Source of the DNA: Microgenomates group bacterium
GTDB taxonomy: Bacteria; Patescibacteriota; Microgenomatia; Daviesbacterales; UBA10151
Direction: 5' to 3'
Length of the DNA: 64,000 bases
NCBI GenBank assembly: GCA_041659805.1
Contig: JBAZXP010000001.1
Location: 448,589 to 512,588 of the forward strand
Made by a program: the position numbers and the translations under genes. Shown here piece by piece: positions 7,110-44,063 of this stretch (position 1 is its first letter; each line of letters starts with the position of its first letter). The notes below the pieces were generated by a model. That model did no database searches, was not told the origin of the DNA, and saw nothing but the letters and a program-made list of their open reading frames with translations.

Positions 7110-8399
7110 TTAGGCCCTACCAATTCCATGATAAATGAATCCCAGTTCTTTAACTTCCAAAGGATCATAGATATTTCGTCCATCAAAAATTATTGCTTGT
7201 TTCATAAGTTTCTTTACTTCTACTAAATCTAATTCTCTGAATTCATTCCATTCTGTGATGAGTAGGAATGCAGAAGCATCTTCAACTGCTTTGTAAGGAC
7301 TTTCTTCATATTGGATTTTATCTCCATATATTTTTCTGACATTTTCCATTGCTTCTGGATCATAAACTTTAATTATAGCTCCGTTTTTCAGTAACATTTC
7401 AATTATTTTAACTGAAGGTGCTTCTCTGATATCGTCAGTATTGGCCTTGAAGGCAAGCCCCAATACTGCGATCGTTTTATCTTTCAAATCGCCTAATTCC
7501 GATTCGACCTTATTAAAAAATTTTTTCGGTTGATCGTTATTTATTTCTTCCACTGCTTTTAATAACTTAAAATCAATATCATATTTTTCGGCGATTTTTA
7601 TAAAAGCGGAGATGTCTTTGGGGAAACATGATCCGCCATATCCAACTCCTGGGTAAAGAAATGCGCGCCCTAATCTTTTATCAAGACCGACTCCTTTTAA
7701 GACCATTTCTACGTCAGCTCCCGTGCTTTCACATAAATTTGCAATTGCATTGGCAAAAGAAATTTTTGTAGCGAGTAAACTATTGGCAGCATATTTAGTC
7801 ATCTGAGCAGATGTTAAATCACAAATAATTCTTTGACCATTAAAATTTTCATATAATTTTAATAATATATCGGCAGCTTTTCTAGAATTAGTGCCAATGA
7901 CTATTCTATCCGGTGTTTTTGTATCCTCTACTGCGGAGCCTTCTCTTAAAAATTCAGGGCAGGAGGCGAATTCAAACTCTGCACTACTATTTTTCTTTAT
8001 TAAGGTTTCCAGTTCTTTTTCAACTCCGATCGGAACAGTACTTTTAATAGCAATTAGTGTGTAATCCTTTAAATGTTTTGCAACACTCTCTGAAGCATCA
8101 TAAAGATAAGTGAGATTTGGTTCGCCGTTTTCTTTGGGCGGGGTACCGACACAAACAAATACAACTTTTGAATTGGGCACTGATTCTTCATATGAGGTTG
8201 TAAAAAACAATCTTCCTTGACTTAAATTTTTCTTAACAAGTTCCTGTAACCCCGGCTCAAAAAAAGGTATCTCTCCCTGGATTAATTTTTCTATTTTAGA
8301 TTCATCTATGTCAACACAATAAACTTTATGGCCCAGGTCTGCAAAAACAGTGCCTGTGACTAAACCAACGTAACCCGTGCCGATAACTGAGATATTCAT
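7110..8399 (-). CDS. ugd: UDP-glucose 6-dehydrogenase / nucleotide-sugar dehydrogenase
   Basis: 429 aa with an N-terminal Rossmann motif VIGTGYVGLVTG. The catalytic-Cys motif GGSCFPKD and the family's C-terminal UDP-binding domain are present. Confidence 0.85.
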   Translation of the reverse strand: MNISVIGTGYVGLVTGTVFADLGHKVYCVDIDESKIEKLIQGEIPFFEPGLQELVKKNLSQGRLFFTTSYEESVPNSKVVFVCVGTPPKENGEPNLTYLYDASESVAKHLKDYTLIAIKSTVPIGVEKELETLIKKNSSAEFEFASCPEFLREGSAVEDTKTPDRIVIGTNSRKAADILLKLYENFNGQRIICDLTSAQMTKYAANSLLATKISFANAIANLCESTGADVEMVLKGVGLDKRLGRAFLYPGVGYGGSCFPKDISAFIKIAEKYDIDFKLLKAVEEINNDQPKKFFNKVESELGDLKDKTIAVLGLAFKANTDDIREAPSVKIIEMLLKNGAIIKVYDPEAMENVRKIYGDKIQYEESPYKAVEDASAFLLITEWNEFRELDLVEVKKLMKQAIIFDGRNIYDPLEVKELGFIYHGIGRA

Positions 8400-8470
8400 A
8401 ATCTAATGAATCATATTGTAAGAATTGAGGTCTTGTCAACCTTAAACTATCTGTCTATTATATTTGGTAC

Positions 8471-9493
8471 ATGACAAGTAAAAAGATTTTAGTTACAGGG
8501 GCTGGAGGATACATAGGATCTGTTACGACAGATTTACTTTTAGAACAAGGATATAAAGTTGTAGCACTTGATAATTTTTCCAGAGGTTATAAATCTCCCT
8601 TAGAATATCTTCAAAATAAATACGGTCATGATAAAATTAGTTTTTATGAAAAAGATTTAGTTCAGGATGACTTAGATGATTTATTTAAAAAAGAAGAGAT
8701 TGAGGTAATTATGCATTTTGCAGCCTTATGTAATGTGGGTGAATCCTGGGAAAAACCTGAACTTTATTTTGGCAATAACGTTATCGGGTTACAAAGGCTA
8801 GCAGAAGTTGCGATAAAAGCAAAAGTTGATAAAATAATTTTTTCCTCTACCTGTGCTGTATATGGTGATGCAAAATATTTGCCGATTGATGAAAAACACC
8901 CGATTGCTGATCCCGCCAGTCCTTATGGAGCCACCAAAAAAATGTGTGAAGAAATTTTGAATTGGTATTCTAAGGCTAATCTTTTGAAGTATGTATTTCT
9001 AAGATATTTTAATGTTACAGGTGCCTCCAATGATCATATGCTGGGGGACTCAAAAAATCCTTCTTTTCACCTTGTTCAAAATGCAGTTAAAGGGGCATTG
9101 GGTTTAGAAAAATTTGAATTAAATTATACCCCAGTAAATACATCTGATGGTTCACCTATTCGTGACTATACAAATGTAGTAGATTTGGCAGACGCTCATA
9201 TAAAGGCGCTTGAATATATATTAAATGAAGAAAATAAAAGTGATGTATTTAATTTAGGAACCGGAAAAGGCGATTCTGTTTTAGAAATTGTTAAAATTGT
9301 GAAAGATAAAACCGGAGTAGATTTTGAGGTAAATATGTCGGAAAACAGGAGAAAAGGTGAGGCAGATAAGATGATTGCAGATATTAAGAAGGCAGAAAAA
9401 TTTTTGGGTTGGAAACCGACGCACACTTTGGAACAAAGTATTGATTCTCTGATTGCTTGGTATAAAGCAAATCCTCAGGGCTGGAAAGATTAA
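8471..9493 (+). CDS. NAD-dependent nucleotide-sugar 4-epimerase (GalE family; possibly UDP-glucuronate 4-epimerase)
   Basis: 340 aa with VTGAGGYIGS Rossmann and SPYGATK (YxxxK) catalytic motifs. It is divergent from ugd. Confidence 0.7.
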   Translation: MTSKKILVTGAGGYIGSVTTDLLLEQGYKVVALDNFSRGYKSPLEYLQNKYGHDKISFYEKDLVQDDLDDLFKKEEIEVIMHFAALCNVGESWEKPELYFGNNVIGLQRLAEVAIKAKVDKIIFSSTCAVYGDAKYLPIDEKHPIADPASPYGATKKMCEEILNWYSKANLLKYVFLRYFNVTGASNDHMLGDSKNPSFHLVQNAVKGALGLEKFELNYTPVNTSDGSPIRDYTNVVDLADAHIKALEYILNEENKSDVFNLGTGKGDSVLEIVKIVKDKTGVDFEVNMSENRRKGEADKMIADIKKAEKFLGWKPTHTLEQSIDSLIAWYKANPQGWKD

Positions 9494-10950
9494 TTATAAA
9501 AGCCCATTAGAGGGTCGAGTTGACTAGTTGGATCATTACAAACTTTTTTATCAGTGAATTCTTTTATGATCGGCTCTATCACTCCGATTTTTCCGAAAAT
9601 AGGATTAGATTCTTTGGGAGAATAACTCCAGGGGAGCACAATACTATAAACAGGTGCACCTCTTCCTGATTTAATTAGTTGGTAATTTTTCCACCAAAAC
9701 AGATATCTAAAACCTCCATCATTGCCGGGGTCAACAATGAAATTAAGTTGAATGCAGGGGAAATTTTTGGATTTTGCGTCCGAAACTATAAAATCAACCA
9801 CTTGTTTTTTCTCTGCCAGAGCCTCTCTAGGAAAAGGTAGATTTATAAAACTAATTAAATTAAAAATAAAATAACTGAGAATTAATAATTCCGCAATTTT
9901 TATCCTATGAAATTTTTGCCTGATAAAATCTAACAAAAGAGATATGCAGAGAATCGGTATAATAATAAAACTTGCAAAGTAATATTCACTGATTCCCCTT
10001 TTTGAAATTTCCTGACTGACGATTATACTTATAAACCAGAGAAAAATGAGTGTTAGCTGAGGACTGCTTAAAACTTTTTTAAATTTCAAAAATATTAATC
10101 CGGCTATGAGGAGTGGGTAGATCAATGAAGGTTGTAGGGGCCAGGGGGTGACTAGGGACCTTGTCATCATGACTGAAGAAGCATCAATAATTTTCATAAA
10201 TCTGTTTAGTCCTTCTGCTTCTGCTACAGATTTTCCGAAAGATGCAAAAATAGATAATGTTTGTGAAAAATTATGTTTTATTTCAAACGCAAAAAAGGGT
10301 ATTAATAAAGTTACTGCAAGCACAATAGGAAAAATGAAAGACGTTAATCTTGGACGTTTTTTTGTAAATACTAAAGCGATTGGAACAAGTCCTAGTAGAG
10401 GTAAAAGGGCTATATGAATATGCCAGATTAATCCTGTAAGTACCCCCAAAATCCAAAATTTTTTATACTCCCCTCTTTGAATACAAAATATAATATAAAG
10501 AAACCAAACAGACCAGATAGGTACAAACATTGTCGGGACTATCCAGCGGTCGAAAAGTGCAATATTTAATGAAACACTATAAATAAAACTTCCGATAAGT
10601 CCGGTAGTTTTATTGAAAATTTTTGAGAATACATAATAGACACTGAGTATTGTAAGGATTCCGTTAATTGCTGAAAGACCAATTGCTCCGGCAGGATCCA
10701 TATCGAATAATGCAAAAAAGGGAATCAAAATATAATAAAATAAAGGACCGATAAAAACTCCCGGAATACTGGTGACCTGGCCGATTAGCCTGAAATGATG
10801 ATCAATGAGTATGTCTTTTACAATCCATGAATAAAGATCCTCATCATGTGCATATGGAGAAAAATGTTCTAATTGATAGAGTCTAAAGAAAAGTCCTGTA
10901 ATTATAATGATTGCTAAGTAAAAATACGGAGACGCAAGAATTCTTTTCAT
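9490..10950 (-). CDS. Polytopic membrane protein, GT-C-like glycosyltransferase (family B, DxD...GPLFYY)
   Basis: 486 aa with more than 10 TM helices. The first extracytoplasmic loop reads HDEDLYSWIVKDIL...LIGQVTSIPGVFIGPLFYY. It is a paralog of 14195..15718. Confidence 0.5.
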   Translation of the reverse strand: MKRILASPYFYLAIIIITGLFFRLYQLEHFSPYAHDEDLYSWIVKDILIDHHFRLIGQVTSIPGVFIGPLFYYILIPFFALFDMDPAGAIGLSAINGILTILSVYYVFSKIFNKTTGLIGSFIYSVSLNIALFDRWIVPTMFVPIWSVWFLYIIFCIQRGEYKKFWILGVLTGLIWHIHIALLPLLGLVPIALVFTKKRPRLTSFIFPIVLAVTLLIPFFAFEIKHNFSQTLSIFASFGKSVAEAEGLNRFMKIIDASSVMMTRSLVTPWPLQPSLIYPLLIAGLIFLKFKKVLSSPQLTLIFLWFISIIVSQEISKRGISEYYFASFIIIPILCISLLLDFIRQKFHRIKIAELLILSYFIFNLISFINLPFPREALAEKKQVVDFIVSDAKSKNFPCIQLNFIVDPGNDGGFRYLFWWKNYQLIKSGRGAPVYSIVLPWSYSPKESNPIFGKIGVIEPIIKEFTDKKVCNDPTSQLDPLMGFYN

Positions 10951-12680
10951 ATCTTTGTCAGTATAGCTTACAAAAACGCATTAAAAAACTATCATTTTTA
11001 AGTCAATTAAAATATGATAATAGGGTGAAATTTGTTATATTTTCTATATTATTTTTAATTGGTCTTCAATTTTTCCTTATTCAACCTTTTTTTCATTCAG
11101 GTTTTTTCCCTACTCATGATGATATTCAGATAATCAGAATTTTTGAATATTTTCAATCGTTAAAATTCGGGGCTATTCCTCCGCGGTGGTCCAGTGGTTT
11201 GCTTTTTGGTTACGGTTATCCCCTGTTTGTTTTTTATAGTCCGCTCGTTTATTTTTTAGGGTCAATGTTTATTTTTTTAGGTTTTAATTTTTTACTTGCT
11301 ACAAAAATAGTTTTTATTCTTTGTTTTTTTGTCGGTGTTATCGGAGTATTTTTTGTTGTTAGGTTTTTCGTGGGGCCTGTACCTGCTTTAATTTCTTCAA
11401 TAATCTATTCTTTTATTCCTTATAGGGCTGTTGACGTATATGTTAGAGGAGATTTGGCAGAATTTTTTGCCTATTCATTTTTCCCTTGGGTATTACTCAT
11501 AAAAATAAAATTATTAACAAATCCTAAACAAAAACTTTTAGTGCCCTTGCTTGGAATATTTTTAGGTTTACTTATTATATCTCATAATATTTCTGTTTTT
11601 ATTTATGCAATTTTTCTTATTGCATGTGATGGTTTTTATATTTTGAATACTGAAAAAAAGATTAGACGGTTGTTAATTACAAATCTTTTTGTCAGTACGA
11701 TTTTAGGAATATTAATATCCTGTTTTTATTGGTTGCCGTTAATTTTCGAATCCCGTTTTGTACAACTCGATAAGGTTATTGCAGATCCGTATAATCAATA
11801 TTTCCTTACTTTAAATCAAATATGGGACTCACCTTGGGGATACGGAGGATTTTTACAACAAAATCCGATGTCTTTGCAATTGGGTAAGGTGATTATAATA
11901 ATTTCATTTTTAGCTTTCATTTTAAATATTTTTGTAAAAACCGCTTTTAGAAAAACCGTTCATTTTTTTAGTGCGGTATATATTGTTAGTACATTGCTTG
12001 AAACTAAAATAACTCAATTTTTTTGGGAAATCGTTACACCACTTCACTATCTGCAATTTCCCTGGAGACTGCATATTCTTAATACAATTTGTGGAATTAT
12101 TTTAATTGGATTCTTTGTTTTTTTCTTGCAACATTTAAAAATTTATCAAAGTAAAATCGGTAAGCTGGCATTTTTAGGAATAATGTTATTTATGATAGGG
12201 ATGTCAGTTAAAGAAAGTTATTCTTTTTTTAGCGCCAAATCCTTTACAGAAGCAAAACCGGCAGCAGCCACTACAACAGGGGAAGAATATTTACCTAAAT
12301 GGGTTAAACAATTACCGAATAATTATCCGGCTGATAAAGCAGAGTTCTTGAAAGGAAATGGCAAAATAGAAAATATTGAATGGGGATACTCCCAAAAAAG
12401 TATTACTGTTGTTTCTCAACAGGAAACCAAAATTCAAATTGCACATATTTATTATCCAGGATGGATTGCTTATATTAACAATAAAAAATCGGATATAAGC
12501 TATGATAATAAATTTGGCCAGATGGAAATTAATGTACCAAAAGGAACTAATAATATTGTTTTTAAATTCGAAAGAACTTGGTGGAGGTGGCTTGCGGATA
12601 TTGTATCTGTAATAGGACTTCTTACTGTGGTCTATTTAATTTATATTAACTATCGGAAAAAAGTAGAGTTAAGTAAATAA
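10911..12680 (+). CDS. YfhO-like polytopic membrane protein (GT-C-like); true start probably downstream (GTG near 11025)
   Basis: Conserved N-terminal loop HDDIQIIRIFE, mid-region YRAVDVYVRGDLAEF and QFPWRLH, and a C-terminal extracytoplasmic YYPGWIAYINN motif. It is paralogous to 46975, 48639 and 50299. The listed start is TTG and overlaps the divergent gene. Confidence 0.55.
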   Translation: MLSKNTETQEFFSYLCQYSLQKRIKKLSFLSQLKYDNRVKFVIFSILFLIGLQFFLIQPFFHSGFFPTHDDIQIIRIFEYFQSLKFGAIPPRWSSGLLFGYGYPLFVFYSPLVYFLGSMFIFLGFNFLLATKIVFILCFFVGVIGVFFVVRFFVGPVPALISSIIYSFIPYRAVDVYVRGDLAEFFAYSFFPWVLLIKIKLLTNPKQKLLVPLLGIFLGLLIISHNISVFIYAIFLIACDGFYILNTEKKIRRLLITNLFVSTILGILISCFYWLPLIFESRFVQLDKVIADPYNQYFLTLNQIWDSPWGYGGFLQQNPMSLQLGKVIIIISFLAFILNIFVKTAFRKTVHFFSAVYIVSTLLETKITQFFWEIVTPLHYLQFPWRLHILNTICGIILIGFFVFFLQHLKIYQSKIGKLAFLGIMLFMIGMSVKESYSFFSAKSFTEAKPAAATTTGEEYLPKWVKQLPNNYPADKAEFLKGNGKIENIEWGYSQKSITVVSQQETKIQIAHIYYPGWIAYINNKKSDISYDNKFGQMEINVPKGTNNIVFKFERTWWRWLADIVSVIGLLTVVYLIYINYRKKVELSK

Positions 12681-14194
12681 GGGTTTGCAGGAATTTTAAT
12701 TTCCTCATCTGTTAACCGGTATTTTTGAATATCTATAACATCAATTGTTTTTATTGATTCAGGTTCTTTATTGATTTTTATATGAGTGACTTTCCAGCCA
12801 TTGCTATCTGTATTAAACAAACCTGAATTTACATCAACAAAAACTAGAAAGGTTAGTCTTTGTTTAGTAAAAGGATAGGCTGTAACATGTCTGTATTCTC
12901 TTTGAACAAATGATAAGGCATACCATTGGTTATAAACCCAAAGATAAGGAGTATATATGTAGTAACCAAAATCCTGATCTGCTTCTTTATAAACAGATTC
13001 CGCGACATATTTATTAAAAGCCCAACTGTTTACGCTCCGTTTTGTAACATCTAAATTAAAATTTTTGATATAACCAGCAGCAATAAAATAATTCCAAGCT
13101 AACAACAAAACAAAGATTAAGAAAAATATTTTTTTAGGAAGATAATTATAAAAAGCTGTATATAAAATTATAATGACTGGTAGAAACGGCCAGTAATATG
13201 TAGTCCAGGAAATGTTAAAAAGTAAAAACATTGCCCAGAAACCAAAGTAAAAATATAAAAATAATAAATATATTTTTTTGAGATTACCCTTAACTACTTT
13301 AAAGGTTAGCAAAACAAATAATAGGAAAGTAACACAGGAAAGCAATCTGCTGTCTTGGGTGAATGCAAAAAAGGTATCTGTTGTAAGGGAAAAAATCTTT
13401 TCATATAAAAACAGCGAAAAATTTGTAGTTACTTTTGGATGTTGGGAGGTAATAAAAGTTATTACAGATTTTGTTTGTAAGAATTCATGTTTTAGTTCAA
13501 AGATTATGTAGGTGGATAGCGGAATAGGAATTATCGGGAGAATGAGTAAATGTTTTAGGAGTTTTTTTGAGAAAAGAAAATATATTAGAAATAAGGTAGT
13601 CATAATTAAAACCGGAATTCCAAAGGCCATTTGAAATTGAATTATGCAACCGAGAATAAGAATCGAAATTAATAGATGCAAAGCTTTTTTGGTTTCGAGG
13701 TATTTTATAAAAAAATAAAAAAATACCGGTGATAAGACGACTGCACCATAAGGGTTATAAAATTGTTTTAAGCCGATTGTCGGGTTAATGATTGAGTTGG
13801 CAGAGTAAAGAAGTGTTGCCAGAAGTGCGATGGTTGAATTGAATAATTTTTTGGTAACAAACCAAAAAATGAGTAATGTGATAATTGATAAACCCCACCA
13901 AAACCAGCCCATTAAAACAGGATCTCCCTGGGTTATAAAAAATGCGGGTAGATTAATATAGTACCAAAGCGGGCCATGGAAGAGCCCGCCCACAATACCG
14001 GAATGAGGGCCGATTAAAGTCAGTTTTCCGGTATCAATAATTTCTTTTAAAACAAGAAAATCTCTGGCAATATCTACGTCATAATGAATGTCACCGTTGA
14101 TCAACCACCATGTGCTTAAAAATACATTTATTACAATGAGAGTAATTACAAAGGCTTCCCATCTTTTTAATTTTCGGATCATTATTTTAGTCAT
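12650..14194 (-). CDS. Polytopic membrane protein, GT-C-like (family C, D..RD...LIGP...GPLWYY)
   Basis: 514 aa and multi-TM. The N-terminal loop reads DVDIARDFLVLKEIIDTGKLTLIGPHSGIVGGLFHGPLWYY. It is a paralog of 40316 and 41824. Confidence 0.5.
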   Translation of the reverse strand: MTKIMIRKLKRWEAFVITLIVINVFLSTWWLINGDIHYDVDIARDFLVLKEIIDTGKLTLIGPHSGIVGGLFHGPLWYYINLPAFFITQGDPVLMGWFWWGLSIITLLIFWFVTKKLFNSTIALLATLLYSANSIINPTIGLKQFYNPYGAVVLSPVFFYFFIKYLETKKALHLLISILILGCIIQFQMAFGIPVLIMTTLFLIYFLFSKKLLKHLLILPIIPIPLSTYIIFELKHEFLQTKSVITFITSQHPKVTTNFSLFLYEKIFSLTTDTFFAFTQDSRLLSCVTFLLFVLLTFKVVKGNLKKIYLLFLYFYFGFWAMFLLFNISWTTYYWPFLPVIIILYTAFYNYLPKKIFFLIFVLLLAWNYFIAAGYIKNFNLDVTKRSVNSWAFNKYVAESVYKEADQDFGYYIYTPYLWVYNQWYALSFVQREYRHVTAYPFTKQRLTFLVFVDVNSGLFNTDSNGWKVTHIKINKEPESIKTIDVIDIQKYRLTDEEIKIPANPYLLNSTFFR

Positions 14195-15718
14195 TTAATT
14201 ATTGAATCCCCAAAGTTGTAATAGTTGTCGGTCAGGTTCTGAGCAAATTTTTGAATCAACCTTTTTTATAGTCGGTAGTATTACTCCGATGTCACCGAAT
14301 CTTACATTAACTTCATTCCCTGAAATAGTCCAGGGGTTTACTATACTGTAAACAGGTATGTCGGCAGAGGCCTTGATGACATTTAATTTATAATACCAAA
14401 ATAAATAGCGGAAACCACTGACTACATTTTCCTTCGGTTCGATATGATTAATTCCGACACAAGGGTAACTGTTTTTTACATAATCATCCCTGATATATTC
14501 AATTGATTTTACTTTAGATGAAAATCCACTAAATCCTTCGGGTTTATTAAAAATCCATATTAAGACTGAAGCTGCATAAATAAATAACAGAATGGTAATT
14601 AGAGGAAATTTTTTTAAAAAGTTATTTAAGTGGTTTAGGAATAATGATAGTATTAAAAATAATATTATTAGAAGGTTGTTGAAATAATATTCTGAAACCG
14701 CCTTTTTAGAAATTAGCTGAGCAAGAAATACTGTAAGGTACCAAAAAAATAATATTAATAATTGTTTAGTAGTTAGAATCCCCTTTTTCCCTAAATAGAT
14801 AGCGATGGAGAGAAGTGTAAATGCTAATAAGGTAACAAATGACAGACTGAATCCTGAAACTTCTCCACCAAAAGTAAGTATGGCGATAAAAGATTTTGTG
14901 CTGGAATCAAAAACTTTGATAACACGATTTATTCCTGTATAACTATCTGCGTTTGTTTGCATTGAGGCAAACAAACTTCTGGTTTGCAAAAATTCATGTT
15001 TTATTTCAAAGATAAAAAAGGGACTAACTAGCACGATTAATATTATTGAAGAAATTAGAAGTGTTTTTAAATTAATTTGATCCTTAATATTTTTTTTCTC
15101 TGATAAGAAAAAAGCAATCGGTAATAAAATAAGTAGCGGAAGTAGGGCGATATGAATATGCCAAATTAGACCTATTAACACGCTTAAAGGAATTAGAATT
15201 TTATAATTTCCTTTCAGAACAGAAAAAAGAACATATAAAAACCAAACAGACCACAAAACTGTCGGTTGAGTTGGCACAACCCAGCGGTCTAAAAATACTG
15301 CGCCAGGGGAAGCTGCATATATGAAAGCCCCGATGAGTCCTGTGTTTTTATTGAAGAATTCTTTGAAGATCCAATAAATGCTGATTATAGTGAACAATCC
15401 CAAAACAGTAGTTACTGCAGCTCCGCTTAAAGGATGCATATTAAAGATACCGAAACTGATTGCAGTCAGGTAATAAAAAAGCGGGCCTATAAACAGACCT
15501 AATATGCTTGTTTCCTGACCGATTAAACGTAGATGATGATCTACAATTATATTTTTTGCTATCCAGGCAGAAAGATCCTGATCATGACCAAAGGAATAAA
15601 AGATTTCTAATTTAAATGTTCTTAAAAAGAGGCCTAAAAGTAAAATTAATAAAAGAATTATAAAAGTATTATGTTTTTTGAAAAAATGATTCATCCTTAA
15701 CTTAGTCCTTTCTTTCAA
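14195..15718 (-). CDS. Polytopic membrane protein, GT-C-like (family B)
   Basis: 507 aa, multi-TM and about 45% identical to 9490..10950 by eye. It shares HDQDLSAWIAKNII...LIGQETSILGLFIGPLFYY and a conserved C-terminal GFRYLFW...PVYSIV block. Confidence 0.5.
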   Translation of the reverse strand: MKERTKLRMNHFFKKHNTFIILLLILLLGLFLRTFKLEIFYSFGHDQDLSAWIAKNIIVDHHLRLIGQETSILGLFIGPLFYYLTAISFGIFNMHPLSGAAVTTVLGLFTIISIYWIFKEFFNKNTGLIGAFIYAASPGAVFLDRWVVPTQPTVLWSVWFLYVLFSVLKGNYKILIPLSVLIGLIWHIHIALLPLLILLPIAFFLSEKKNIKDQINLKTLLISSIILIVLVSPFFIFEIKHEFLQTRSLFASMQTNADSYTGINRVIKVFDSSTKSFIAILTFGGEVSGFSLSFVTLLAFTLLSIAIYLGKKGILTTKQLLILFFWYLTVFLAQLISKKAVSEYYFNNLLIILFLILSLFLNHLNNFLKKFPLITILLFIYAASVLIWIFNKPEGFSGFSSKVKSIEYIRDDYVKNSYPCVGINHIEPKENVVSGFRYLFWYYKLNVIKASADIPVYSIVNPWTISGNEVNVRFGDIGVILPTIKKVDSKICSEPDRQLLQLWGFNN

Positions 15719-15731
15719 GTATACTCATAGC

Positions 15732-18068
15732 ATGCGCCCAAAGGAAGTCATTATAGTGCTCTTTTTCTTTATATTTATTACCTTAGCTTTTTTTTATCAA
15801 ATTTTCTTAGGATTAATTCCTTTACCTACAGACTTGATTGTTGGAGTGTATCACCCCTGGATTAATTATCAATGGGGTTACAACACACTGGTTCCTATTC
15901 ACAACTCTTTGCTTTCAGATGCCGTCTCAATAATTTATCCTTTGAAAGTAGCTGCTGTTGATATGCTCAAAAGAGGAGAGCTTCCCCTTTGGAATCCGTA
16001 CATGCTTGGTGGGTATCCTTTATATGCCAGCACAATATTAGGTTTGATTTTCCCGACAATGATTTTTTATTTATTTTTTTCAGCACCTGTTGCCTGGACT
16101 TTACAGATGATGTTTCAACCTCTTTTAGCCTCATTTTTTATGTATCTTTTATTAAGACATCTAAATTTGAATAAACTGGCCAGTGTTTTTGGCGGTATTG
16201 CTTATGGTTTCGGAGGATTTCTGACTATTTGGATGCAGTGGAATACTCAGCCTTCAACGGCTCTTTTTTTACCGATACTAATTTTGCTGGAAGATAAATA
16301 TTTAATTTCAAAACAGCTTAAGTGGGGAGTTTTATTTAGTATTTTTATAGCTTTGCAAATAACAGCCGGCTATTTACCTATTATTCAATTTACCTTTATT
16401 GGATTGGGGATTTGGTTTTTATTTAGATCTAATAGTTTTATATCTGATTTAAAAATTTCCTTTTTTGTTATTTTGGGGATACTTTTGAGTGCAATATATT
16501 TATTGCCGGTTTTAGAACTTCTTCAACTCTCACAAAGAAAGATAGAAACTTTGGGTGCATTCGACTCACCTTTTATTTATTCTGAAAATTTAATTGCACT
16601 TATTGCGCCTGATTTTTTTGGCAATACCGCTACCAGAAATTTTTGGGGGAGGGGAGAGTATTTAGATTCTACTATATATACAGGTGTAGTGACTTTAATA
16701 TTTTCAATCTTTGGTTTAAAGAATTTTTTTAATAAATCTGCTGTCAGATTTGCAGCTTGTCTTTTTATTGTTGCAATTATTTTAGCTGTCCCTAATCCTT
16801 TTAGTGAATTTTTATATAAATTAGGTATTTGGGGAGGCTCTTCTTTGAGTTTAAACAGAATAATTTTTTTGATAAATTTTTCTCTGGCAATTTTAGGAGC
16901 ATATGGTTTATCTACATTTAGTATTAGTAATTTTAAATTAAGTATTAAACCTGGTGTTTGGGTTTTATCAGCAATTTTTGGGCTTGTTGCAGGATTATTT
17001 ATCAGCAGGTGGTTGTTGATAAATTATTTTGTTACCGCTGAAACAGAGAAATGGCTATCTTATATAAGTATTAGTTTAAGGAATTTAATTCTTCCCGCTC
17101 TAATTATTTTAGTTGTAATTATATTAATTTTATTAATAAAGAAGTTTGTTATTTTAAAGCCTTATGCAGAAATCGGTTTTATTTTGATTTTAATTTTTGA
17201 ATTATTCCGTTTCGGTTTGAAATTTAATACATTTTCAAAGATTGATTATCTTTATCCTAAAACTCCTGTTTCTAATTTTTTAGAAAAATATCCTAATGAC
17301 AGAATATTGGCTGAAAAAGATATCTTCCCTGCCAATATGTGGGTTCCTTATAAACTTTCCTCTATCTCAGGTTATGACGGAATATATCCTTTAAATATTG
17401 CCCAACTTATTGCTTCTGCAAATTCTGATAAAGTTGATGTCCCACCTCAAACCAGATGGGGTTTGCTCACAAATTTTGATTCAAAAATAATGGATACCAC
17501 AAATACCCGTTTTCTGGTTACTGTTAAAAGAGACAAGCAAGTTGATAGTCAGTTTATAAAATCAAAGTATAAACAGGTTTTTTCTGACAAGGGGATAGTG
17601 GTATTGGAAAATACTCAAAGTTTACCGAGAGCATATTTAACAAAACATGTTGTTAAATCATCAGATAAAGATACTCTTAAATTAATGTTAGATAAAAGTT
17701 TCCCTACACAGGATATTTCTTTGTCTGATTTTGAATGGAATAATCTTTCAGAAGAGGTTTTGGATCAAAAATTAACTTATAAATCTATAACTAACTCACA
17801 TGTACAAATAAAAAGCGCTACTAATATTGATGCTTATCTAGTAGTGCTTGATTCTTTTTATCCAGGATGGAAAGCTTTGATTGACGGAGAAGAAACACAA
17901 ATTCATAGAACCAATTATAATTTCAGAGGAATTTTACTGCCAAAAGGTGCGCATACTGTTGATTTTATTTATGTTCCAAAATCGCTAGAATATGGAGCAA
18001 TCATCAGCGGCTTTTCTTTATTAGTAATTACTATTTTATTAGTAGTACCTAAAATTAAAAGGAATTAG
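15732..18068 (+). CDS. YfhO-family membrane protein (GT-C-like glycosyltransferase)
   Basis: 778 aa and multi-TM. The C-terminal extracytoplasmic segment YPGWKALIDGEETQIHRTNYNFRGILLPKGAHTVDFIYVP matches the YfhO C-terminal signature. Confidence 0.6.
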   Translation: MRPKEVIIVLFFFIFITLAFFYQIFLGLIPLPTDLIVGVYHPWINYQWGYNTLVPIHNSLLSDAVSIIYPLKVAAVDMLKRGELPLWNPYMLGGYPLYASTILGLIFPTMIFYLFFSAPVAWTLQMMFQPLLASFFMYLLLRHLNLNKLASVFGGIAYGFGGFLTIWMQWNTQPSTALFLPILILLEDKYLISKQLKWGVLFSIFIALQITAGYLPIIQFTFIGLGIWFLFRSNSFISDLKISFFVILGILLSAIYLLPVLELLQLSQRKIETLGAFDSPFIYSENLIALIAPDFFGNTATRNFWGRGEYLDSTIYTGVVTLIFSIFGLKNFFNKSAVRFAACLFIVAIILAVPNPFSEFLYKLGIWGGSSLSLNRIIFLINFSLAILGAYGLSTFSISNFKLSIKPGVWVLSAIFGLVAGLFISRWLLINYFVTAETEKWLSYISISLRNLILPALIILVVIILILLIKKFVILKPYAEIGFILILIFELFRFGLKFNTFSKIDYLYPKTPVSNFLEKYPNDRILAEKDIFPANMWVPYKLSSISGYDGIYPLNIAQLIASANSDKVDVPPQTRWGLLTNFDSKIMDTTNTRFLVTVKRDKQVDSQFIKSKYKQVFSDKGIVVLENTQSLPRAYLTKHVVKSSDKDTLKLMLDKSFPTQDISLSDFEWNNLSEEVLDQKLTYKSITNSHVQIKSATNIDAYLVVLDSFYPGWKALIDGEETQIHRTNYNFRGILLPKGAHTVDFIYVPKSLEYGAIISGFSLLVITILLVVPKIKRN

Positions 18069-34240: not shown

Positions 34241-37117
34241 TTAATATTTCACTTCTATGATTCCTTGATTAGTTAATAGTTCCAAGAATATAATTCCTTC
34301 TTTTTCTAATTTTTGTTCTTTAGAACCTTTTTGCTTAGTTTGAAGTTTTGTTATATTTTTTCTAGGATTAAAATCAGTGTTTATTTCTATCTGATTTTTA
34401 ATTTCAATTTTCTGTTCAAATTTCTTAATATTATCACTTCTTTTGTCGTTTTCCATGTCAACTGCAAACTCATTTTTGGGTAATTGTATAGGTGAGTTTG
34501 CATTATATGAAATATTTATAATTCTTAGTTTATTTTCTTCTTCATCCTTTTCATCTTCTTTTTCATCTTTATCTTCATCATGATTTTGTTCAGAATCTTG
34601 TGATTTTAGTTGTAGTTTTGTAGTATTACCAGCCTCGTCAGCTATGTTAATTTCAGAAGAACTCTGATTAACTTGTGTTGGGGTTAAATTATCTAACCCG
34701 ATAGTCTTAAATTGACTGGTTTGAAGATCAAAACTAATATTTACTTCTGGAGAAGTTTTATCAATTTTTATTTCTATTTCTTGAGGATTCTCCTCATTTC
34801 CGGCATTATCAGTGCTTTTTACCTTTAATTTGTTAATTCCTTCCTGCGAAATAGTAAAGGGTTCAGTATAGGTCTGTATAGTTTGTCCATTATCCAAAGA
34901 ATATTCTGTTTTTAATATTCCAGAACCATTTGTTTCATCAGTAGCGTTTAATTCAACTATCACATCACTTTTATACCAACTGTTGTTTCCTGTGGTTCCT
35001 GTGAGTTTTATAATTGTTGTGGGTGCAGTTTGATCATAACTTGCGTCTCCAGTTAAAATACTAGTGTCATTTACTTGAAAATCAGTAATTCCATTTCCAT
35101 CTGCGTCAATTTGTAAGATTGGTGGAGTAGTTGCAGCGGTATCGAAAGTGGTTTCTGCTTCAGTATCCTTTGTTAAAGGAACATCTTTGTATAAAATAGT
35201 TTTGTCATTCACATCATCTTTATAATTTCTGATTTTAAAATCAAAACTTCCCTGATCAGTTGCTTCAAATTTAACGATATAGGTTCCACCATCAGGTAGC
35301 CATATAAATTTTGCATCCCCTAAAACTTCATAAGAAGAACCGGGAATATTTGTTTCATAATCTCCGTTTGGTAAAGGACCTGTGTGGTTATTATTTTGAT
35401 CATATGCATGAATTAGAACAGGAGAATGAGAAGATAGGCCAGTGCCCTGGAAGCGATATGCAGTGGTGGATACTTCAGAAGGTAAAGAACTATCACCAGA
35501 TAGAATATTTTTAACTAAATTCATAGCAGGTCCATCGAAAACTAAATCACTGTGACGTTGATTCGTATAGTATATTATTGCTGTTCCTGCGATAGTTTTT
35601 ACTCCGTCTGTTAAAGAAGCGCTAAATAAAGGAACTGTGTCATCTCCATTAATTTTTCTTATATCTGTTTTAGGAATTTTTATACCTGCAAAATTTAGAT
35701 GATAGTCTTCTATAATTTGCCCGGTAGTTGCTTGCCCTGAGCCTGTAATAATAGAAGCATCAACTCCATTTAGATTGTTAAGATTATTGTCTAGATTATG
35801 AAAAGTTTCAGCTGGATTAAATAATGCGGTATTGTAACTCAGATTCGTAAGAGTAGTTTTAAGTTGTTGATAAGATAGAAAGCCAATTACTCCGTTATTA
35901 TCAACATCACGATTATCAACAAAAGGTATGGGGTGATTATTATCAGATCCATTATAAAAATTATAATATTTTTGAGAAGGAGCTAGCTCATATCCGCTAA
36001 TCATATTTCGAAGAATATCTTTGATTTCTGAATCCGGAATACCTAAGCAAAACGGTAAATTTAAAGAATCTAGCCAAGGTTTTGATAAGCAGCCTCCATA
36101 TATGAGATTTTTTAAGAAAAATGTTGTTCCTAGGTAAGGTGCGCCTAATGTAACTAATTTTCTGACATCTTGGGCTTTTACTGGATCATTAATATAATTT
36201 CTGGCAACTAGACCTCCCATGGAATGGCTTACTATATCTACTTTTTGGCTGCCTGTTAGATTTTTAATATTTGTTATTTTTTGATCTAGTAGAGGAAAAG
36301 TTTTTGCAATATCTTTTCTCCAATCATACGGAAAAACAAACAGGTCTTGGTTTAGTTTATATCCGTTATCTGTAAAGAATTTAATAGTATCTCCATATGC
36401 CCCTGAATAAATATTGTCCTCTATCAAAGTTAAATCTACTGGGCTTGTTATTCCATCAGGGTTTAATCCTAAAATATCAAAATAATCATCATTTCCCAGT
36501 GCCCTTCCTTCATCCTCATTTACCCAAACTTTTTCATCTGCAGGGTAAGTATGGTTATAAGTTCCTCCACGACTATCAGGCATAGACCAAAGGATTGTAT
36601 CTTTTGTTTTAAACTCTGATCCCCCTATTCCTGGAATAAAAATTACTGGTGTTTTGGGTGGGGTTGGGTCAGGAGCATTGGTGTTAACCAGATAAAGGGA
36701 TGAGCTGGCATAATATGCTCCACAAATATCCATAAGTTTAACCTGGACTTTATTCAGACCGGGTTTAAAAAGAGAGGTGAAATTTAGCGGAGGATTAAGA
36801 TGAATATAGGTGCAGTTACCGTCATACCTGGTAGTGCTTGATTCAGTGGTGCCATCGGGTCTTGTAACTGAAATAGAAATTGCATCATCAACTCTGGTAA
36901 CTCCTGTCCCGTCAGCGAATTCACCTAAAATAATTTGTCCACCTTGGTAATTCACATCAAAATCTGTAGTTAAAAAAGTTTCACCTGTTGGGGTCCATGT
37001 TTCATAGATACCTGTAGTAATGCTGTAAGGAATTGTTGCCGCACTAACTAAATTTGGAAAAAAGAGAAAAAGTAAAATTGCTGAAAACAAAATTTTGGTG
37101 ATCTTTATCACTAACAC
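34241..37117 (-). CDS. Large secreted alpha/beta-hydrolase (lipase/esterase-like, GHSMGG) with beta-rich repeat domains and an acidic KDE tract
   Basis: 958 aa with a signal peptide. The nucleophile elbow VDIVSHSMGGLVARNY (GxSxG) follows IFIPGIGGSEF. The C-terminal region has Ig-like repeats and DEDKDEKEDEKDEEEN. Confidence 0.55.
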   Translation of the reverse strand: MLVIKITKILFSAILLFLFFPNLVSAATIPYSITTGIYETWTPTGETFLTTDFDVNYQGGQIILGEFADGTGVTRVDDAISISVTRPDGTTESSTTRYDGNCTYIHLNPPLNFTSLFKPGLNKVQVKLMDICGAYYASSSLYLVNTNAPDPTPPKTPVIFIPGIGGSEFKTKDTILWSMPDSRGGTYNHTYPADEKVWVNEDEGRALGNDDYFDILGLNPDGITSPVDLTLIEDNIYSGAYGDTIKFFTDNGYKLNQDLFVFPYDWRKDIAKTFPLLDQKITNIKNLTGSQKVDIVSHSMGGLVARNYINDPVKAQDVRKLVTLGAPYLGTTFFLKNLIYGGCLSKPWLDSLNLPFCLGIPDSEIKDILRNMISGYELAPSQKYYNFYNGSDNNHPIPFVDNRDVDNNGVIGFLSYQQLKTTLTNLSYNTALFNPAETFHNLDNNLNNLNGVDASIITGSGQATTGQIIEDYHLNFAGIKIPKTDIRKINGDDTVPLFSASLTDGVKTIAGTAIIYYTNQRHSDLVFDGPAMNLVKNILSGDSSLPSEVSTTAYRFQGTGLSSHSPVLIHAYDQNNNHTGPLPNGDYETNIPGSSYEVLGDAKFIWLPDGGTYIVKFEATDQGSFDFKIRNYKDDVNDKTILYKDVPLTKDTEAETTFDTAATTPPILQIDADGNGITDFQVNDTSILTGDASYDQTAPTTIIKLTGTTGNNSWYKSDVIVELNATDETNGSGILKTEYSLDNGQTIQTYTEPFTISQEGINKLKVKSTDNAGNEENPQEIEIKIDKTSPEVNISFDLQTSQFKTIGLDNLTPTQVNQSSSEINIADEAGNTTKLQLKSQDSEQNHDEDKDEKEDEKDEEENKLRIINISYNANSPIQLPKNEFAVDMENDKRSDNIKKFEQKIEIKNQIEINTDFNPRKNITKLQTKQKGSKEQKLEKEGIIFLELLTNQGIIEVKY

Positions 37118-39613: not shown

Positions 39614-40312
39614 ATGAAAATTGATGCTTTATCTGTCTTTTTTCCGGCTTTTAATGAAGAGGAAAACATAACTTCTACAATTACAAAAGCAAATGATGTT
39701 TTAGCCTCACTTTCCTTAAAAGATTACGAAATAATTGTGGTGGATGATGGTTCAAAGGATAAAACAGTAGAAACTGTTAATAACCTAATAAAAACAAATA
39801 AACATATACGTCTTGTGAGTCATGAGGTTAATAAAGGATATGGTGAAGCATTAAAAACTGGGTTTAGAGAGGCAAAATTTCCTTGGGTAGCTTTTGCTGA
39901 TGCAGATGGTCAGTTTGATTTTGCAGAAATTACTAAACTGATGGATGAAACAGATAAGGCTGATTTTATTTTAGGGTATCGCTTGAGAAGAGCAGATCCT
40001 TTTGTCAGGATTTTTTTCAATGTTGTTTGGATAATCGGTGCCAGAATTTTATTTGATTTTCCATCTCGGGATTATTCCTGTGGTTTCAAGTTGATTAAAA
40101 AATCTGCTTTTGATGCCACACTCCCCTTGCAGGCAGGAGAAAAAGTAACTCAAATAGAAATGTTGGTAAAAGCTAAAAGGCTTGGTTTTAAATTTGCAGA
40201 AGTCGGAGTTCATCACTACCCAAGAATGTTTGGCAAATCCACTGGTGGGAATTTATTGGTGGTATTTAAAAGCTATCTTGATCTGATTAAATTGTGGTGG
40301 AAATTACATTAG
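39614..40312 (+). CDS. GT2 polyprenol-phosphate glycosyltransferase (Dpm1/ArnC-like)
   Basis: 232 aa with LSVFFPAFNEEENI...IIVVDDGSKDKT...FADADGQ (DxD). Confidence 0.75.
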   Translation: MKIDALSVFFPAFNEEENITSTITKANDVLASLSLKDYEIIVVDDGSKDKTVETVNNLIKTNKHIRLVSHEVNKGYGEALKTGFREAKFPWVAFADADGQFDFAEITKLMDETDKADFILGYRLRRADPFVRIFFNVVWIIGARILFDFPSRDYSCGFKLIKKSAFDATLPLQAGEKVTQIEMLVKAKRLGFKFAEVGVHHYPRMFGKSTGGNLLVVFKSYLDLIKLWWKLH

Positions 40313-40315
40313 TTT

Positions 40316-41827
40316 ATGAAGTCTTCAATTCAATGGATTAAACGAAATCGGTTTGAAGCAATTATTATTATTTTGATAATAGTGGTGGCCTCTTTTCTCA
40401 GATTTTATAAGCTTTCTGATTACATGACTTTTTTAGGTGATGAGGGCAGGGATGCTTTAATAGTTAAAGATATCTTAGTTGAGCATATTATCCCCTCAAT
40501 TGGTCCCCCATCATCTGTGGGGAATGTGTATTTAGGTCCTTTGTATTACTATATGATGGCGACTTCTATGGCAATTTTTTGGCTTAACCCCGTGGCTGCT
40601 GCAGGAATGGTGGCTTTGATCGGAGTGATGGCTGTTGCTCTGATTTATTATTTAGCCCGGGTTTGGTTTGGAATGTATTCTGCAATTTTATCAGCCTCAC
40701 TTTATGCCCTATCTTTTGTGGTTACTTTTTACTCCAGATCTTCCTGGAATCCTAACCCTGCCCCTTTTTTTACACTTCTGGCTGTTTTGGGGTTTTATAA
40801 AGCCAGACAAACCAAGAATTTTTTGTGGCTTATTTTAACCGGATTGAGTACTGCAGCAGCTGTGCAGATGCATTATCTGGCTTTGATTTTAATCCCGGTT
40901 TTCGGTATTTTATATATTTTTGAGCTCTTTCAGCAAAAAAAATTACAGGAATACAATTATTTTATATCAGGTGCATTTTTGGGGGTGGTGTCATTTATTC
41001 TGGTAATGTTACCGCTTATATTATTTGATTTCCGTCATGATTTTTTAAACTATCGTGGGGTTGTTGCCCTATTTACTAAAAGCGGCAGTAGCGTGAGTTT
41101 TAATCTTTTTGACAGTCTGGCAAAAATTTCACCAATTTTCGATCAAAAATTGGTTGGAAGATACTTGGGCGCAGAAAATCCGTTAATTATTTTTCTGGTT
41201 TCTATTTTTATTATTACTCCGATAATGATTGCTCTGTATAAAGTTGTTTACAAAAAAGAAGCAATGAGCTGGTCAATAAAAGCTCTTAGTGTTTGGCTGG
41301 CGGTAGGTCTTTTTGGGGTCTCCTTATTCAGACTGGAAGTATATGATCATTATCTGGGTTTTTTGAGCCCTGTGCCATTTTTACTTTTAGGTGCTTTTAT
41401 TTTTGAATTGCCTGATAAATGGAAAAAAATTGCAGCAGCGCTAATTATTATTATATTGGGATTTTTGAATTTGCAGCAAAACGTATTGTTTAAGCCTGCA
41501 GGTAATCAATTTACCCGTACTCGGGAAATTGCACAATTTGTGCTTAATGAAGCCGGAAATAAACCTTTTAATTTTGCTTTGATTTCAAAAAATAATTATG
41601 ATTCAGCGTATCAATTTTATTTCTATATTTACGGGCATGAACCCAAAGTAGTGCCAATTGATGTGACTGACCAATTGTTGGTTGTTTGTGAGGATCCTAT
41701 ATGTAAACCTGTCGGTAATGCCAAGTATGAAATTGCAGGATTCGGCTGGACTTTAATGGATAAAGAAACTTATTTTGACGGAGTCAGAATTTATAGACTT
41801 ATACATAATTCGGCTCAGCCCAAATGA
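40316..41827 (+). CDS. Polytopic membrane protein, GT-C-like (family C)
   Basis: 503 aa with FLGDEGRDALIVKDIL...GPLYYY. It is a paralog of 12650 and 41824 and sits 4 nt after the upstream stop. Confidence 0.5.
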   Translation: MKSSIQWIKRNRFEAIIIILIIVVASFLRFYKLSDYMTFLGDEGRDALIVKDILVEHIIPSIGPPSSVGNVYLGPLYYYMMATSMAIFWLNPVAAAGMVALIGVMAVALIYYLARVWFGMYSAILSASLYALSFVVTFYSRSSWNPNPAPFFTLLAVLGFYKARQTKNFLWLILTGLSTAAAVQMHYLALILIPVFGILYIFELFQQKKLQEYNYFISGAFLGVVSFILVMLPLILFDFRHDFLNYRGVVALFTKSGSSVSFNLFDSLAKISPIFDQKLVGRYLGAENPLIIFLVSIFIITPIMIALYKVVYKKEAMSWSIKALSVWLAVGLFGVSLFRLEVYDHYLGFLSPVPFLLLGAFIFELPDKWKKIAAALIIIILGFLNLQQNVLFKPAGNQFTRTREIAQFVLNEAGNKPFNFALISKNNYDSAYQFYFYIYGHEPKVVPIDVTDQLLVVCEDPICKPVGNAKYEIAGFGWTLMDKETYFDGVRIYRLIHNSAQPK

Positions 41828-43323: not shown

Positions 43324-44063
43324 AAAATATCAAATTGACTGTTGTTATTCCTGCTTTTAATGAAGCAGACAATCTTAAAAAAGGCGCTCTGGAGTCCGTT
43401 TACCAGTATCTTAAAAATCAAAAATATAGTTATGAGGTTTTGATTGTTGATGACGGTTCGTTAGACGCAACAGTGACACTTGTTGAAAGTGTTATTAAAA
43501 ATATGCCCGGTTTTAGAATTGTAAAAAACTCTCACGGCGGTAAGGCGATTACAGTCATGAGCGGTTTGCTTATGAGCAATGGGGAGATCGCCCTTTTTAC
43601 AGATATGGATCAGGCTACCCCTATTGATCAAATAGAAAAGCTTTTACCAAAATTTGAAGAAGGATTTGATATTGTGATTGGTTCAAGACATGGTAGGGAA
43701 GGCGCACCGGCCATCCGCAAATTAATGGGTTGGGGGTTTTCTGTTTTACGAAAACTAATATTGGGTCTGCCTTTTGCTGATACGCAATGCGGATTTAAAG
43801 CATTTAATAAAAAATCCATTCAGCTGATATTTCCGGAACTTTTGGAAAGGTGGAAAAAGACCGGGACAAGCGGGGCTGCAGTAAATGCAGGTTTTGATGT
43901 CGAGACGCTTTTTATTGCCAGAAAAAAAGGATTAAAAATTGCTGAAGTTCCTGTTGACTGGAGACATGTCGGAACAGAACGGGTACAGGCAGTCAGGGAC
44001 TCTTTGGAGGCGTTAAAAGACATGGCACGTATTAAAATTAATGATATACAAGGGAAGTATTAA
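43320..44063 (+). CDS. GT2 polyprenol-phosphate glycosyltransferase (Dpm1/ArnC-like)
   Basis: 247 aa with LTVVIPAFNEADNL...VLIVDDGSLDAT...FTDMDQA. It overlaps the upstream stop. Confidence 0.75.
   Translation: MKNIKLTVVIPAFNEADNLKKGALESVYQYLKNQKYSYEVLIVDDGSLDATVTLVESVIKNMPGFRIVKNSHGGKAITVMSGLLMSNGEIALFTDMDQATPIDQIEKLLPKFEEGFDIVIGSRHGREGAPAIRKLMGWGFSVLRKLILGLPFADTQCGFKAFNKKSIQLIFPELLERWKKTGTSGAAVNAGFDVETLFIARKKGLKIAEVPVDWRHVGTERVQAVRDSLEALKDMARIKINDIQGKY

Follow-up and report, generated by a model that had tools for sequence, protein, structure and literature searches.

A divergent ArnT-like clade of GT-C glycosyltransferases with a conserved first-loop signature in a Microgenomates genome, and its probable partnership with adjacent GT2 sugar synthases

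A 64,000-nucleotide stretch of the genome of a Microgenomates group bacterium (assembly GCA_041659805.1, contig JBAZXP010000001.1, positions 448,589 to 512,588), hereafter called the window, harbours five genes for polytopic membrane proteins, in which the predicted first extracytoplasmic loop (EL1) ends in the motif GP[LF][FYW]YY. A preliminary description of the same DNA had placed two of them in a family B and three in a family C, and these letters are retained here along with the first coordinate of each gene as its name. All five open reading frames (ORFs) were found where that description located them; the span 9490-15718 under which it reported them holds three, while 40316 and 41824 lie outside it. 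The five genes are as follows.

9490-10950, minus strand: B-type GT-C glycosyltransferase of 486 amino acids (aa); EL1 signature H35..Y73 at about 10732-10848, reading HDEDLYSWIVKDILIDHHFRLIGQVTSIPGVFIGPLFYY.
12650-14194, minus strand: 12650-type protein of 514 aa, the most divergent of the five, directly downstream of 14195 with zero gap; EL1 D39..Y79 at about 13958-14080, reading DVDIARDFLVLKEIIDTGKLTLIGPHSGIVGGLFHGPLWYY.
14195-15718, minus strand: B-type GT-C glycosyltransferase of 507 aa from a TTG start; EL1 H45..Y83 at about 15470-15586, reading HDQDLSAWIAKNIIVDHHLRLIGQETSILGLFIGPLFYY.
40316-41827, plus strand: 40316-type GT-C glycosyltransferase of 503 aa, the first transferase of a four-gene module; EL1 D42..Y79 at about 40439-40552, reading DEGRDALIVKDILVEHIIPSIGPPSSVGNVYLGPLYYY.
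41824-43323, plus strand: 41824-type GT-C glycosyltransferase of 499 aa, the second transferase of the module; EL1 D42..Y78 at about 41947-42057, reading DQGRDALIVDQILHGKLTLIGPTTGIEGIFLGPFYYY.

The public counterpart of 14195 (P0001) is 100% identical, has 499 aa and is titled 'glycosyltransferase family 39 protein'; the TTG start of the ORF looks too far upstream, lying 8 codons (15695-15718) before the start of the public protein.

Scanning of the first 150 residues of 34 extracted ORFs (about 300 aa or longer) detected the loop end GP[LF][FYW]YY, at residues 69-79, in these five and in no other. The signature starts with HD[QE]D in B and with D[EQ]GRD in C. The consensus given earlier for B matches both B strings letter for letter; that for C is right overall, except that its opening 'D..(A/G)RD' carries one surplus dot and should read D.(A/G)RD. 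In the B alignment (A1; 70 homologues including 9490, identity down to 39%, numbering as in 14195), residues D48, R64, G67, Q68, T70, F76, G78, P79, Y82 and Y83 are invariant, and H45, D46, W52, I53, K55, D56 and H62 are conserved in at least 90% of the sequences, D46 being Asp in 94% and Glu in 5%. In the 41824-type alignment (A2; 72 homologues, identity down to 34%), D42, R45, D46, G62, P63, G69, G73 and P74 are invariant. Among 24 relatives of the 40316 type, DEGRD is retained in 21 and the loop end GP.(Y/F)YY in all. Sampling of the 12650 type is thin, with no orthologue in the homologue sets; the single one checked, at the Daviesbacteria locus L005 (45% identity), retains DVDVSRDF...GPLWFY. 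Thus the motif is kept in orthologues, and its conservation is not a matter of chance.

Invariant polar residues are also found beyond the loop: D144/R145/W146, H187/H189, E238/H241/Q245 after the seventh transmembrane (TM) helix and K338/E343/Y344/Y345 before the tenth in B, while R140/W141, Q182, Q225, F228 and a GNYG..YDYYF stretch are conserved in C. The secondary-structure pattern from DSSP, together with hydropathy, places these residues on the predicted outer face. The C-terminal alpha/beta domain of B carries an invariant Cys pair, C420/C492.

The relationship between the two proposed families was evaluated by sequence and profile comparison. Each B member is linked to each C member by BLASTP (E 1e-8 to 1e-25; 9490 and 14195 share 41% identity), and hhalign of the B and C profiles gave a probability of 100 and an E value of 2e-42 over 440 columns, with the loop gap-free. 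The 12650 protein joins the C profile at E 4e-24 (BLASTP 5e-21 to 41824 and 3e-14 to 14195), and 40316 aligns with A2 at E 4e-33 and with A1 at E 4e-27. The B-C profile match and the joining of 12650 and 40316 at E 4e-24 to 4e-33 indicate that the five proteins form one homologous clade of about four subfamilies as judged from the profiles, in which 'family C' comprises three subfamilies of a clade that also holds B. The view of two families does not survive these comparisons, since the distance of 40316 to B is only slightly greater than that to the 41824 group.

Similarly, the proteins can no longer be regarded as unassigned. Three of the five pass the gathering cutoff of Pfam PMT_2 (PF13231; 26.1 bits), namely 9490 (34.2 bits), 14195 (38.3 bits) and 40316 (39.6 bits), and identical public proteins are named 'glycosyltransferase family 39 protein' by NCBI or '4-amino-4-deoxy-L-arabinose transferase-like glycosyltransferase' by JGI. 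The score of 41824 (21.9 bits) is below the cutoff, and most 41824-type homologues do carry PF13231; 12650 has no Pfam or NCBIfam match. The PMT_2 match begins at profile position 4, which corresponds to the GP..YY residues; the acidic half of the loop therefore falls outside the Pfam model, which is probably why the proteins looked unassigned. The YfhO family (PF09586), matched by the neighbouring ORF 15732, is matched by none of the five, and the evidence does not support counting them among ArnT proper (GT83) or PMT proper (GT39). Pfam and NCBIfam currently have no specific model for the clade, and the EL1 signatures could supply one.

The fold was predicted by AlphaFold2 for 14195 (predicted local distance difference test score, pLDDT, 91.9; predicted TM-score, pTM, 0.92) and for 41824 (pLDDT 94.5; pTM 0.93). 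Foldseek comparison with the PDB returned ArnT (5F15/5EZM) as the best match of both models (E 1e-6 and TM-score 0.57-0.59 for B; E 5e-9 and TM-score 0.54-0.58 for C), followed by PglB, AglB and STT3 subunits and then by ALG12/ALG9, Pmt4 and AftA/AftB. GT-C enzymes and PIG-U make up the whole of the top 25-36 matches (probability at least 0.93), at an identity of 10-15% to any solved chain. This result, along with the PMT_2 matches, bears out the earlier proposal that the proteins are GT-C glycosyltransferases.

DSSP of the models displayed about 11-12 long hydrophobic helices besides juxtamembrane helices, and a hydropathy scan gave 7-10 strong TM segments. In B, TM1 spans residues 2-34; juxtamembrane helix 1 (45-58) begins at HDQD and is followed by an extended stretch, juxtamembrane helix 2 (80-91) begins at the L after GP, and TM2 starts at 96. 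The N-termini contain 2-6 K/R and at most one acidic residue. In some relatives described below, a GT2 domain is fused directly N-terminal to TM1, hence TM1 should run from inside to outside and EL1 should face outward. The architecture suggested by the models would accordingly comprise a K/R-rich cytoplasmic N-terminus, about 11 TM helices, an EL1 of two juxtamembrane helices and an extracytoplasmic C-terminal domain of about 100 residues, to which the B Cys pair C420/C492 fits. As judged from the alignments, the acidic start would open juxtamembrane helix 1 with an Asp equivalent to ArnT D55/Pmt1 D77, which in solved GT-C enzymes binds the acceptor or activates it and for which a catalytic role may be proposed, and GP[LF][FYW]YY appears to open juxtamembrane helix 2 as the counterpart of '(K/H)PPxxW' of ArnT.

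The homology of the loop to that of ArnT was traced through a paralogue in the window.

44041-45435, plus strand: canonical ArnT-like PMT_2 paralogue of 464 aa; PMT_2 score 67.5 bits; loop WDEAWYGEIAKNI...DHPPFVFW.

phmmer aligned 44041 with Cupriavidus metallidurans ArnT (5EZM) at E 1.2e-14 with the loop included, NWDEAWYGEIAKNI...DHPPFVFW of 44041 falling over GPDEGRYAEISREM...EKPPFHMW of 5EZM; DE of 44041 lies on ArnT D55/E56 and DHPP on E84/K85/P86 (the PDB chain numbering is offset by +3). With a profile of 41 sequences of the 44041 family (A3) as a bridge, hhalign aligned the B profile at a probability of 97.4 (E 1.3e-11), the C profile at 96.9 (E 1.7e-10) and 40316 at E 1e-6. In B, HDQDL..WIaKDI aligns over wDEAWYaeIArNI and GPLFYY over HPPaGfW. 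For both B and C, the D of DE is matched by the first D of the signature and the E by the Q/E that follows, and PP of HPP..W is matched by GP of GP..YY; the alignment is gap-free across the first half of the loop. The loop starts are also alike, being DEDLY in 9490 (a literal DE..Y), HDQDLSAWIAKNI in 14195 and DEGRD in 40316, against WDEAWYGEIAKNI in 44041 and DEGRY in the Cupriavidus ArnT. The other PMT_2 paralogues of the window form a continuum with these (45428, ADEAIY...GKTPLFMW; 56943, GDELT...GRPPFYVY).

The alignments thus argue that the EL1 signature is the canonical ArnT/PMT_2 catalytic loop in a diverged form, contrary to the earlier statement that it differs from the DE..Y loop of ArnT and PMT; the accompanying remark that its acidic residues stand where catalytic residues of GT-C enzymes sit is upheld at alignment level, as the first loop Asp aligns with the catalytic Asp of ArnT-like enzymes. 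A structural account of these enzymes describes ArnT D55/E56 and Pmt1 D77/E78 as a conserved active-site pair whose first Asp binds the acceptor, a metal ion or both; in ArnT, the lipid-carrier phosphate is contacted by K85, the apo form has a metal bound by E84/K85, and D158 pairs with K203 near the sugar (PMC7801869). The loop of the clade is 1-2 residues longer than the canonical one (D-to-P spacing of 32-33 vs 31 residues), and its middle is rich in Gly, Pro and Thr, reading LIGQxTSIxGxF in B and LIGPTTGIEGIF in C.

The genomic context of 40316 and 41824 is a module of four genes in the order GT2, GT-C, GT-C, GT2 (39614, 40316, 41824, 43320), which lie on one strand with 3-nt gaps or small overlaps. 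The two GT2 genes are as follows.

39614-40312, plus strand: soluble GT2, putative polyprenyl-phosphate sugar synthase of 232 aa; Pfam Glycos_transf_2; 3 nt upstream of 40316.
43320-44063, plus strand: second soluble GT2, of 247 aa; Pfam Glycos_transf_2; overlaps the stop codon of 41824.

A second Daviesbacteria genome and a more distant one have the same order. Among 80 loci sampled for synteny from species-representative genomes (L007-L086; 32-68% identity), two tandem C-type genes directly follow a GT2 gene in 70, and the C-gene run is directly followed by a GT2 gene in 76, with both flanks occupied in 69. Many genomes have an extra tandem C-type copy inserted in the module. The best solved relatives are ArnC, GtrB and DPMS for 39614, and GtrB, DPMS and ArnC for 43320 (GtrB being sll0501, and DPMS dolichol-phosphate-mannose synthase); in NCBIfam, the GT2s match PgfS, ArnC and Dol-P-hexose transferase best, in each case with a score under the equivalog cutoff. 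By sequence, the GT2s of the module look like polyprenyl-phosphate sugar synthases. With just 232 and 247 aa, compared to 322-374 residues in the solved relatives, they appear to be devoid of the C-terminal membrane region and may reach the membrane-bound polyprenyl phosphate by docking on the adjacent GT-C.

The linkage extends to natural fusions of GT2 with GT-C, which were detected in four of the best 150 representatives, all with a 40316-type loop. P0459, P0476 and P0481 (about 730 aa) and P0440 (1092 aa) consist of an N-terminal GT2 and a 40316-type GT-C; in P0440, about 400 additional uncharacterised residues separate the two domains. P0476 aligns collinearly with 39614 and 40316, its residues 1-233 matching full-length 39614 (40% identity, E 6e-53) and its residues 248-730 matching full-length 40316 (38% identity, E 7e-111). 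The operon logic of GT2 with GT-C has been established in CsbB/YfhO, in the YkcC/YkcB and YkoT/YkoS pairs (PMC5836110) and in GT136 systems (PMC11127046). The conserved four-gene module and the fusions are the most useful by-products of the analysis; together they offer a compact clonable unit for finding which sugar reaches the surface of these bacteria.

A merged-profile search of 1.84 billion representative proteins (clusters at 50% identity) retrieved 3,783 representatives at E 1e-30, 9,497 at E 1e-10 and 34,077 at E 1e-3. Named homologues belong to Daviesbacteria, Woesebacteria, Amesbacteria, Shapirobacteria, Blackburnbacteria, Levybacteria and other Microgenomates or Patescibacteria bins; the clade appears to be confined to the Microgenomates group of candidate-phyla bacteria, where it is abundant, as had been anticipated. 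Many of the operon-bearing species-representative records are titled 'uncultured Gammaproteobacteria bacterium' or 'Pseudomonadales' (L009-L017; OZ246397.1, CAYQZQ010000001.1); these contigs or 'chromosomes' measure 0.4-0.7 Mb and share the gene order, and their organism names are probably wrong. No characterised or solved close relative was found, again in agreement with the preliminary description. Literature searches for candidate-phyla bacteria with GT-C, GT39 or GT2-GT-C fusions returned nothing, and a review of Patescibacteria does not mention glycosylation (PMC11665869).

Among known systems, ArnT (GT83; Cupriavidus metallidurans 5EZM/5F15; E. coli b2257) is the closest in structure, and it shares with the clade the EL1 layout of two juxtamembrane helices, the loop-start D and loop-end P (aligned via the 44041-family profile), the D-[EQ]-G-R of family C (DEGRY in ArnT) and the partnership with an ArnC-like GT2. 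It differs in having 13 TM helices rather than about 11 plus a small C-terminal domain, and in its sequence (10-12% identity), which profile-to-sequence search does not detect. The canonical PMT_2 (COG1807-type) paralogues 44041, 45428 and 56943 have the same Pfam domain, occur in the same gene clusters and possess a loop homologous by column; they show wDE..Y...(D/E)(H/K)PP..W where the clade has a LIGQxTSIxG or LIGPTTGIEG middle and a GP.YYY end. PMT (GT39; yeast Pmt1-Pmt2 6P25, Pmt4) likewise has the GT-C fold and about 11 TM helices, and lends its family number to the NCBI names of the clade, and the acidic pair D77/E78 at the start of its loop 1 is essential (PMC7801869). However, the fold match to PMT is weaker (E 1e-2, TM-score 0.3-0.5), and Pfam scans detected no MIR domain in the proteins. 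A cytoplasmic GT2 with an extracytoplasmic GT-C is also the arrangement of CsbB/YfhO, YkcC/YkcB, YkoT/YkoS, GtlA/GtlB, PgfS/PgfM of S. mutans and GtrA/GtrB/GtrC, and essential acidic residues have been found in the first outer loop of such pairs (PMC5836110; PMC11127046). In contrast to these, the GT-C partners of the clade are of the PMT_2 type and not of the YfhO, GtlB or GtrC type, the GT2s of the module appear to have no C-terminal TM helices, and the module is doubled, with GT2 and GT-C forming one polypeptide in some genomes.

These observations make it quite probable that the five proteins represent a Microgenomates-specific clade of ArnT-like GT-C glycosyltransferases which use polyprenyl-phosphate sugars made by adjacent GT2s. 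Homology, fold, motif conservation, and linkage and fusion to GT2 are shown by the analysis, from which the detailed topology, the catalytic role of the Asp, the lipid-linked donor and the acceptor are inferred. A function as extracytoplasmic transferases dependent on polyprenyl-phosphate sugars is the most likely one because of the flanking GT2s (69/80), their likeness to ArnC, GtrB and DPMS, and the GT2+GT-C fusions. In such a scheme, the neighbouring cytoplasmic GT2 would load a sugar onto polyprenyl phosphate, the lipid-linked sugar would be flipped (for which the window offers two candidates, the GtrA domain of 37202 and the Wzx-type 51984), and the GT-C enzyme would pass the sugar on to an acceptor on the membrane's outer face; a surface glycan, a teichoic-acid-like polymer or a protein may serve as this acceptor. 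The clade is a divergent branch of known ArnT/PMT-type enzymes, and what is known about GT-C enzymes is not overturned by it; the gain lies in the placement of the five proteins as one ArnT-like clade with a diagnostic EL1 signature.

Several observations weigh against this interpretation. The position of ArnT E56 is occupied by Q in 85% of B and in 97% of the 41824 type, with E in the 40316 type; the positions of E84/K85 read [I/L/R]-G with invariant Gly, where K85 is the phosphate contact; and the canonical GNLD (ArnT D158) and LTK (K203) fall on uncharged columns in hhalign, the region reading DRWVVPTQP and WHIH in B, and RWLSNPxP and QLE in C. At alignment level, the D55 equivalent alone is conserved among the ArnT active-site residues compared; since several of them are replaced, substrate binding must differ in detail. 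Against the single sequence of E. coli ArnT, the B and C profiles gave non-significant E values of 0.31 and 0.085, although DE was paired with DQ, and no PDB chain was retrieved at E up to 10 in sequence searches that used the B, C or merged profile or the single sequence 40316; the link to ArnT accordingly rests on the intermediate 44041-family profile and on the fold. The location of the Asp relative to the membrane interface is read from alignment and secondary structure. The B cluster has no GT2, and none is directly adjacent to the B genes in the window. Finally, the evidence on the clade comes from sequence, predicted models and gene context.

The residue replacements may be taken further. 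It is conceivable that the GP.YYY clade forms a GT-C family with a mechanism of its own, which would be a candidate for a new CAZy family once a member is characterised, with the roles of ArnT E56, K85 and D158/K203 taken over by R45/D46, R140/W141 and Q182/E184 in C, and by R64/Q68/T70, DRW and WHIH in B. It could operate as an obligate unit with a GT2 that lacks TM helices, sometimes fused into a single chain, and in this fused or paired form the two might link the synthesis of the lipid-linked sugar to its translocation and transfer, with no need for a separate flippase. We consider this unlikely, though it deserves some weight. That the proteins are functional orthologues of ArnT (transfer of aminoarabinose to lipid A) or of bacterial PMT (O-mannosylation of Ser/Thr in secreted proteins) is doubtful. 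The database names, the PMT_2 and PMT matches and the rank of ArnT as best structural match agree with such orthology, and a protein acceptor is possible, the best NCBIfam match of the GT2s being PgfS from a protein-glycosylation system. However, none of the five matches the ArnT equivalog PRK13279 of NCBIfam, which 44041 does weakly (51 bits vs a cutoff of 567), and PMT (PF02366; cutoff 22.7 bits) is passed by 40316 alone (34.9 bits), with no match for the other four. Moreover, the key ArnT residues E56, K85 and D158/K203 are replaced, identity to the solved ArnT, PMT and related structures is 10-15% with TM-scores of 0.3-0.6, and at least eight PMT_2/PMT-type paralogues occur in the window, which cannot all have one orthologous function. 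The arnBCADTEF-type context of the E. coli locus is also absent from the window, where the genes nearby encode GT2s, other GT-Cs, GalE, UDP-glucose dehydrogenase and Wzx, with no ArnA, ArnB or ArnD. To our knowledge, no lipid A is expected in this candidate-phyla lineage.

Loss of the phosphate-binding Lys and of the D158/K203 pair of ArnT at the aligned columns would also be consistent with catalytically inactive proteins of GT-C fold, serving as scaffolds, as factors for binding or flipping lipid-linked sugars, or as non-catalytic partners. Agl23 has been proposed as such a binding or flipping factor, and 40316 gives a sub-threshold match to TIGR03663, 'flippase activity-associated protein Agl23' (46.4 bits against a cutoff of 126.25 bits; no match for the other four); PIG-U, a non-catalytic comparison, is among the distant fold matches, and tandem 40316/41824 could be one enzyme and one partner. 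The EL1 Asp is nevertheless present in 100% of C and in 94% of B (with Glu in a further 5%), the dense invariant polar residues in predicted outward loops are the pattern expected of an active site, and each of the two C genes is paired with its own flanking GT2 in 69 of the 80 genomes; inactivity is thus a rather improbable explanation. The notion of transporters or permeases that share just hydrophobic composition with GT-C enzymes has in its favour that the proteins are polytopic and that MFS and ABC transporters figure at the bottom of the Foldseek lists. Those entries have a probability of at most 0.15 and a TM-score of about 0.1, below top matches that are all GT-C enzymes or PIG-U, and no transporter family of Pfam or NCBIfam matches any of the five, so that this idea is effectively refuted. 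An ArnT-like clade supplied by adjacent GT2s remains the preferred reading.

The B genes lie in a cluster with the order SecA, YfhO-type, B, 12650-type, PTPS_related-type, B, GalE and UDP-glucose dehydrogenase, an arrangement which partly recurs in Daviesbacteria L005 and not in the more distant L006. GalE (322 bits, above the equivalog cutoff) and UDP-glucose 6-dehydrogenase occupy 7110-9493 beside a B gene, and also 9500-11883 of L005; they hint at a supply of hexose or uronic acid for the B cluster, a link which is not retained in L006. The proposal that the B enzymes transfer uronic acid, drawn from these neighbours, was dropped as the B member of L006 lies in a different neighbourhood. 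The PTPS_related-type GT-C gene 10911-12680, unrelated to the five, also falls inside the span 9490-15718; its TTG start looks too far upstream, given the 40-nt overlap (10911-10950) with the start of the divergently transcribed 9490-10950.

Altogether, about 15-16 polytopic ORFs of GT-C type are present in the 64 kb (9490-18068 and 38383-63672) of a genome of about 1.13 Mb. They are distributed as follows.

Present clade: 9490, 12650, 14195, 40316 and 41824.
PMT_2: 44041, 45428 and 56943; PMT: 38383; YfhO: 15732.
PTPS_related-type paralogues: 10911, 46975, 48639 and 50299.
Others: 58604 (weak GT87) and 62488 (BLAST-related to 56943).

The genomes of Microgenomates-group candidate-phyla bacteria measure about 1 Mb, and the organisms are thought to live attached to hosts. 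With about 15 GT-C enzymes within 64 kb of so small a genome, surface glycosylation is clearly a major investment, and the dense array of paralogues suggests that a complex surface glycan is assembled or decorated step by step.

Two large paralogous ORFs, 53491-56928 (plus strand, 1145 aa) and 60488-62443 (minus strand, 651 aa), are embedded in the glycosylation cluster; they share 32% identity over 650 residues (E 5e-83), with no Pfam match for either. A protein of 958 aa with an LCAT/PGAP1-like alpha/beta-hydrolase (lipase) domain is encoded at 34241-37117 (minus strand), adjoining the glycosylation genes.

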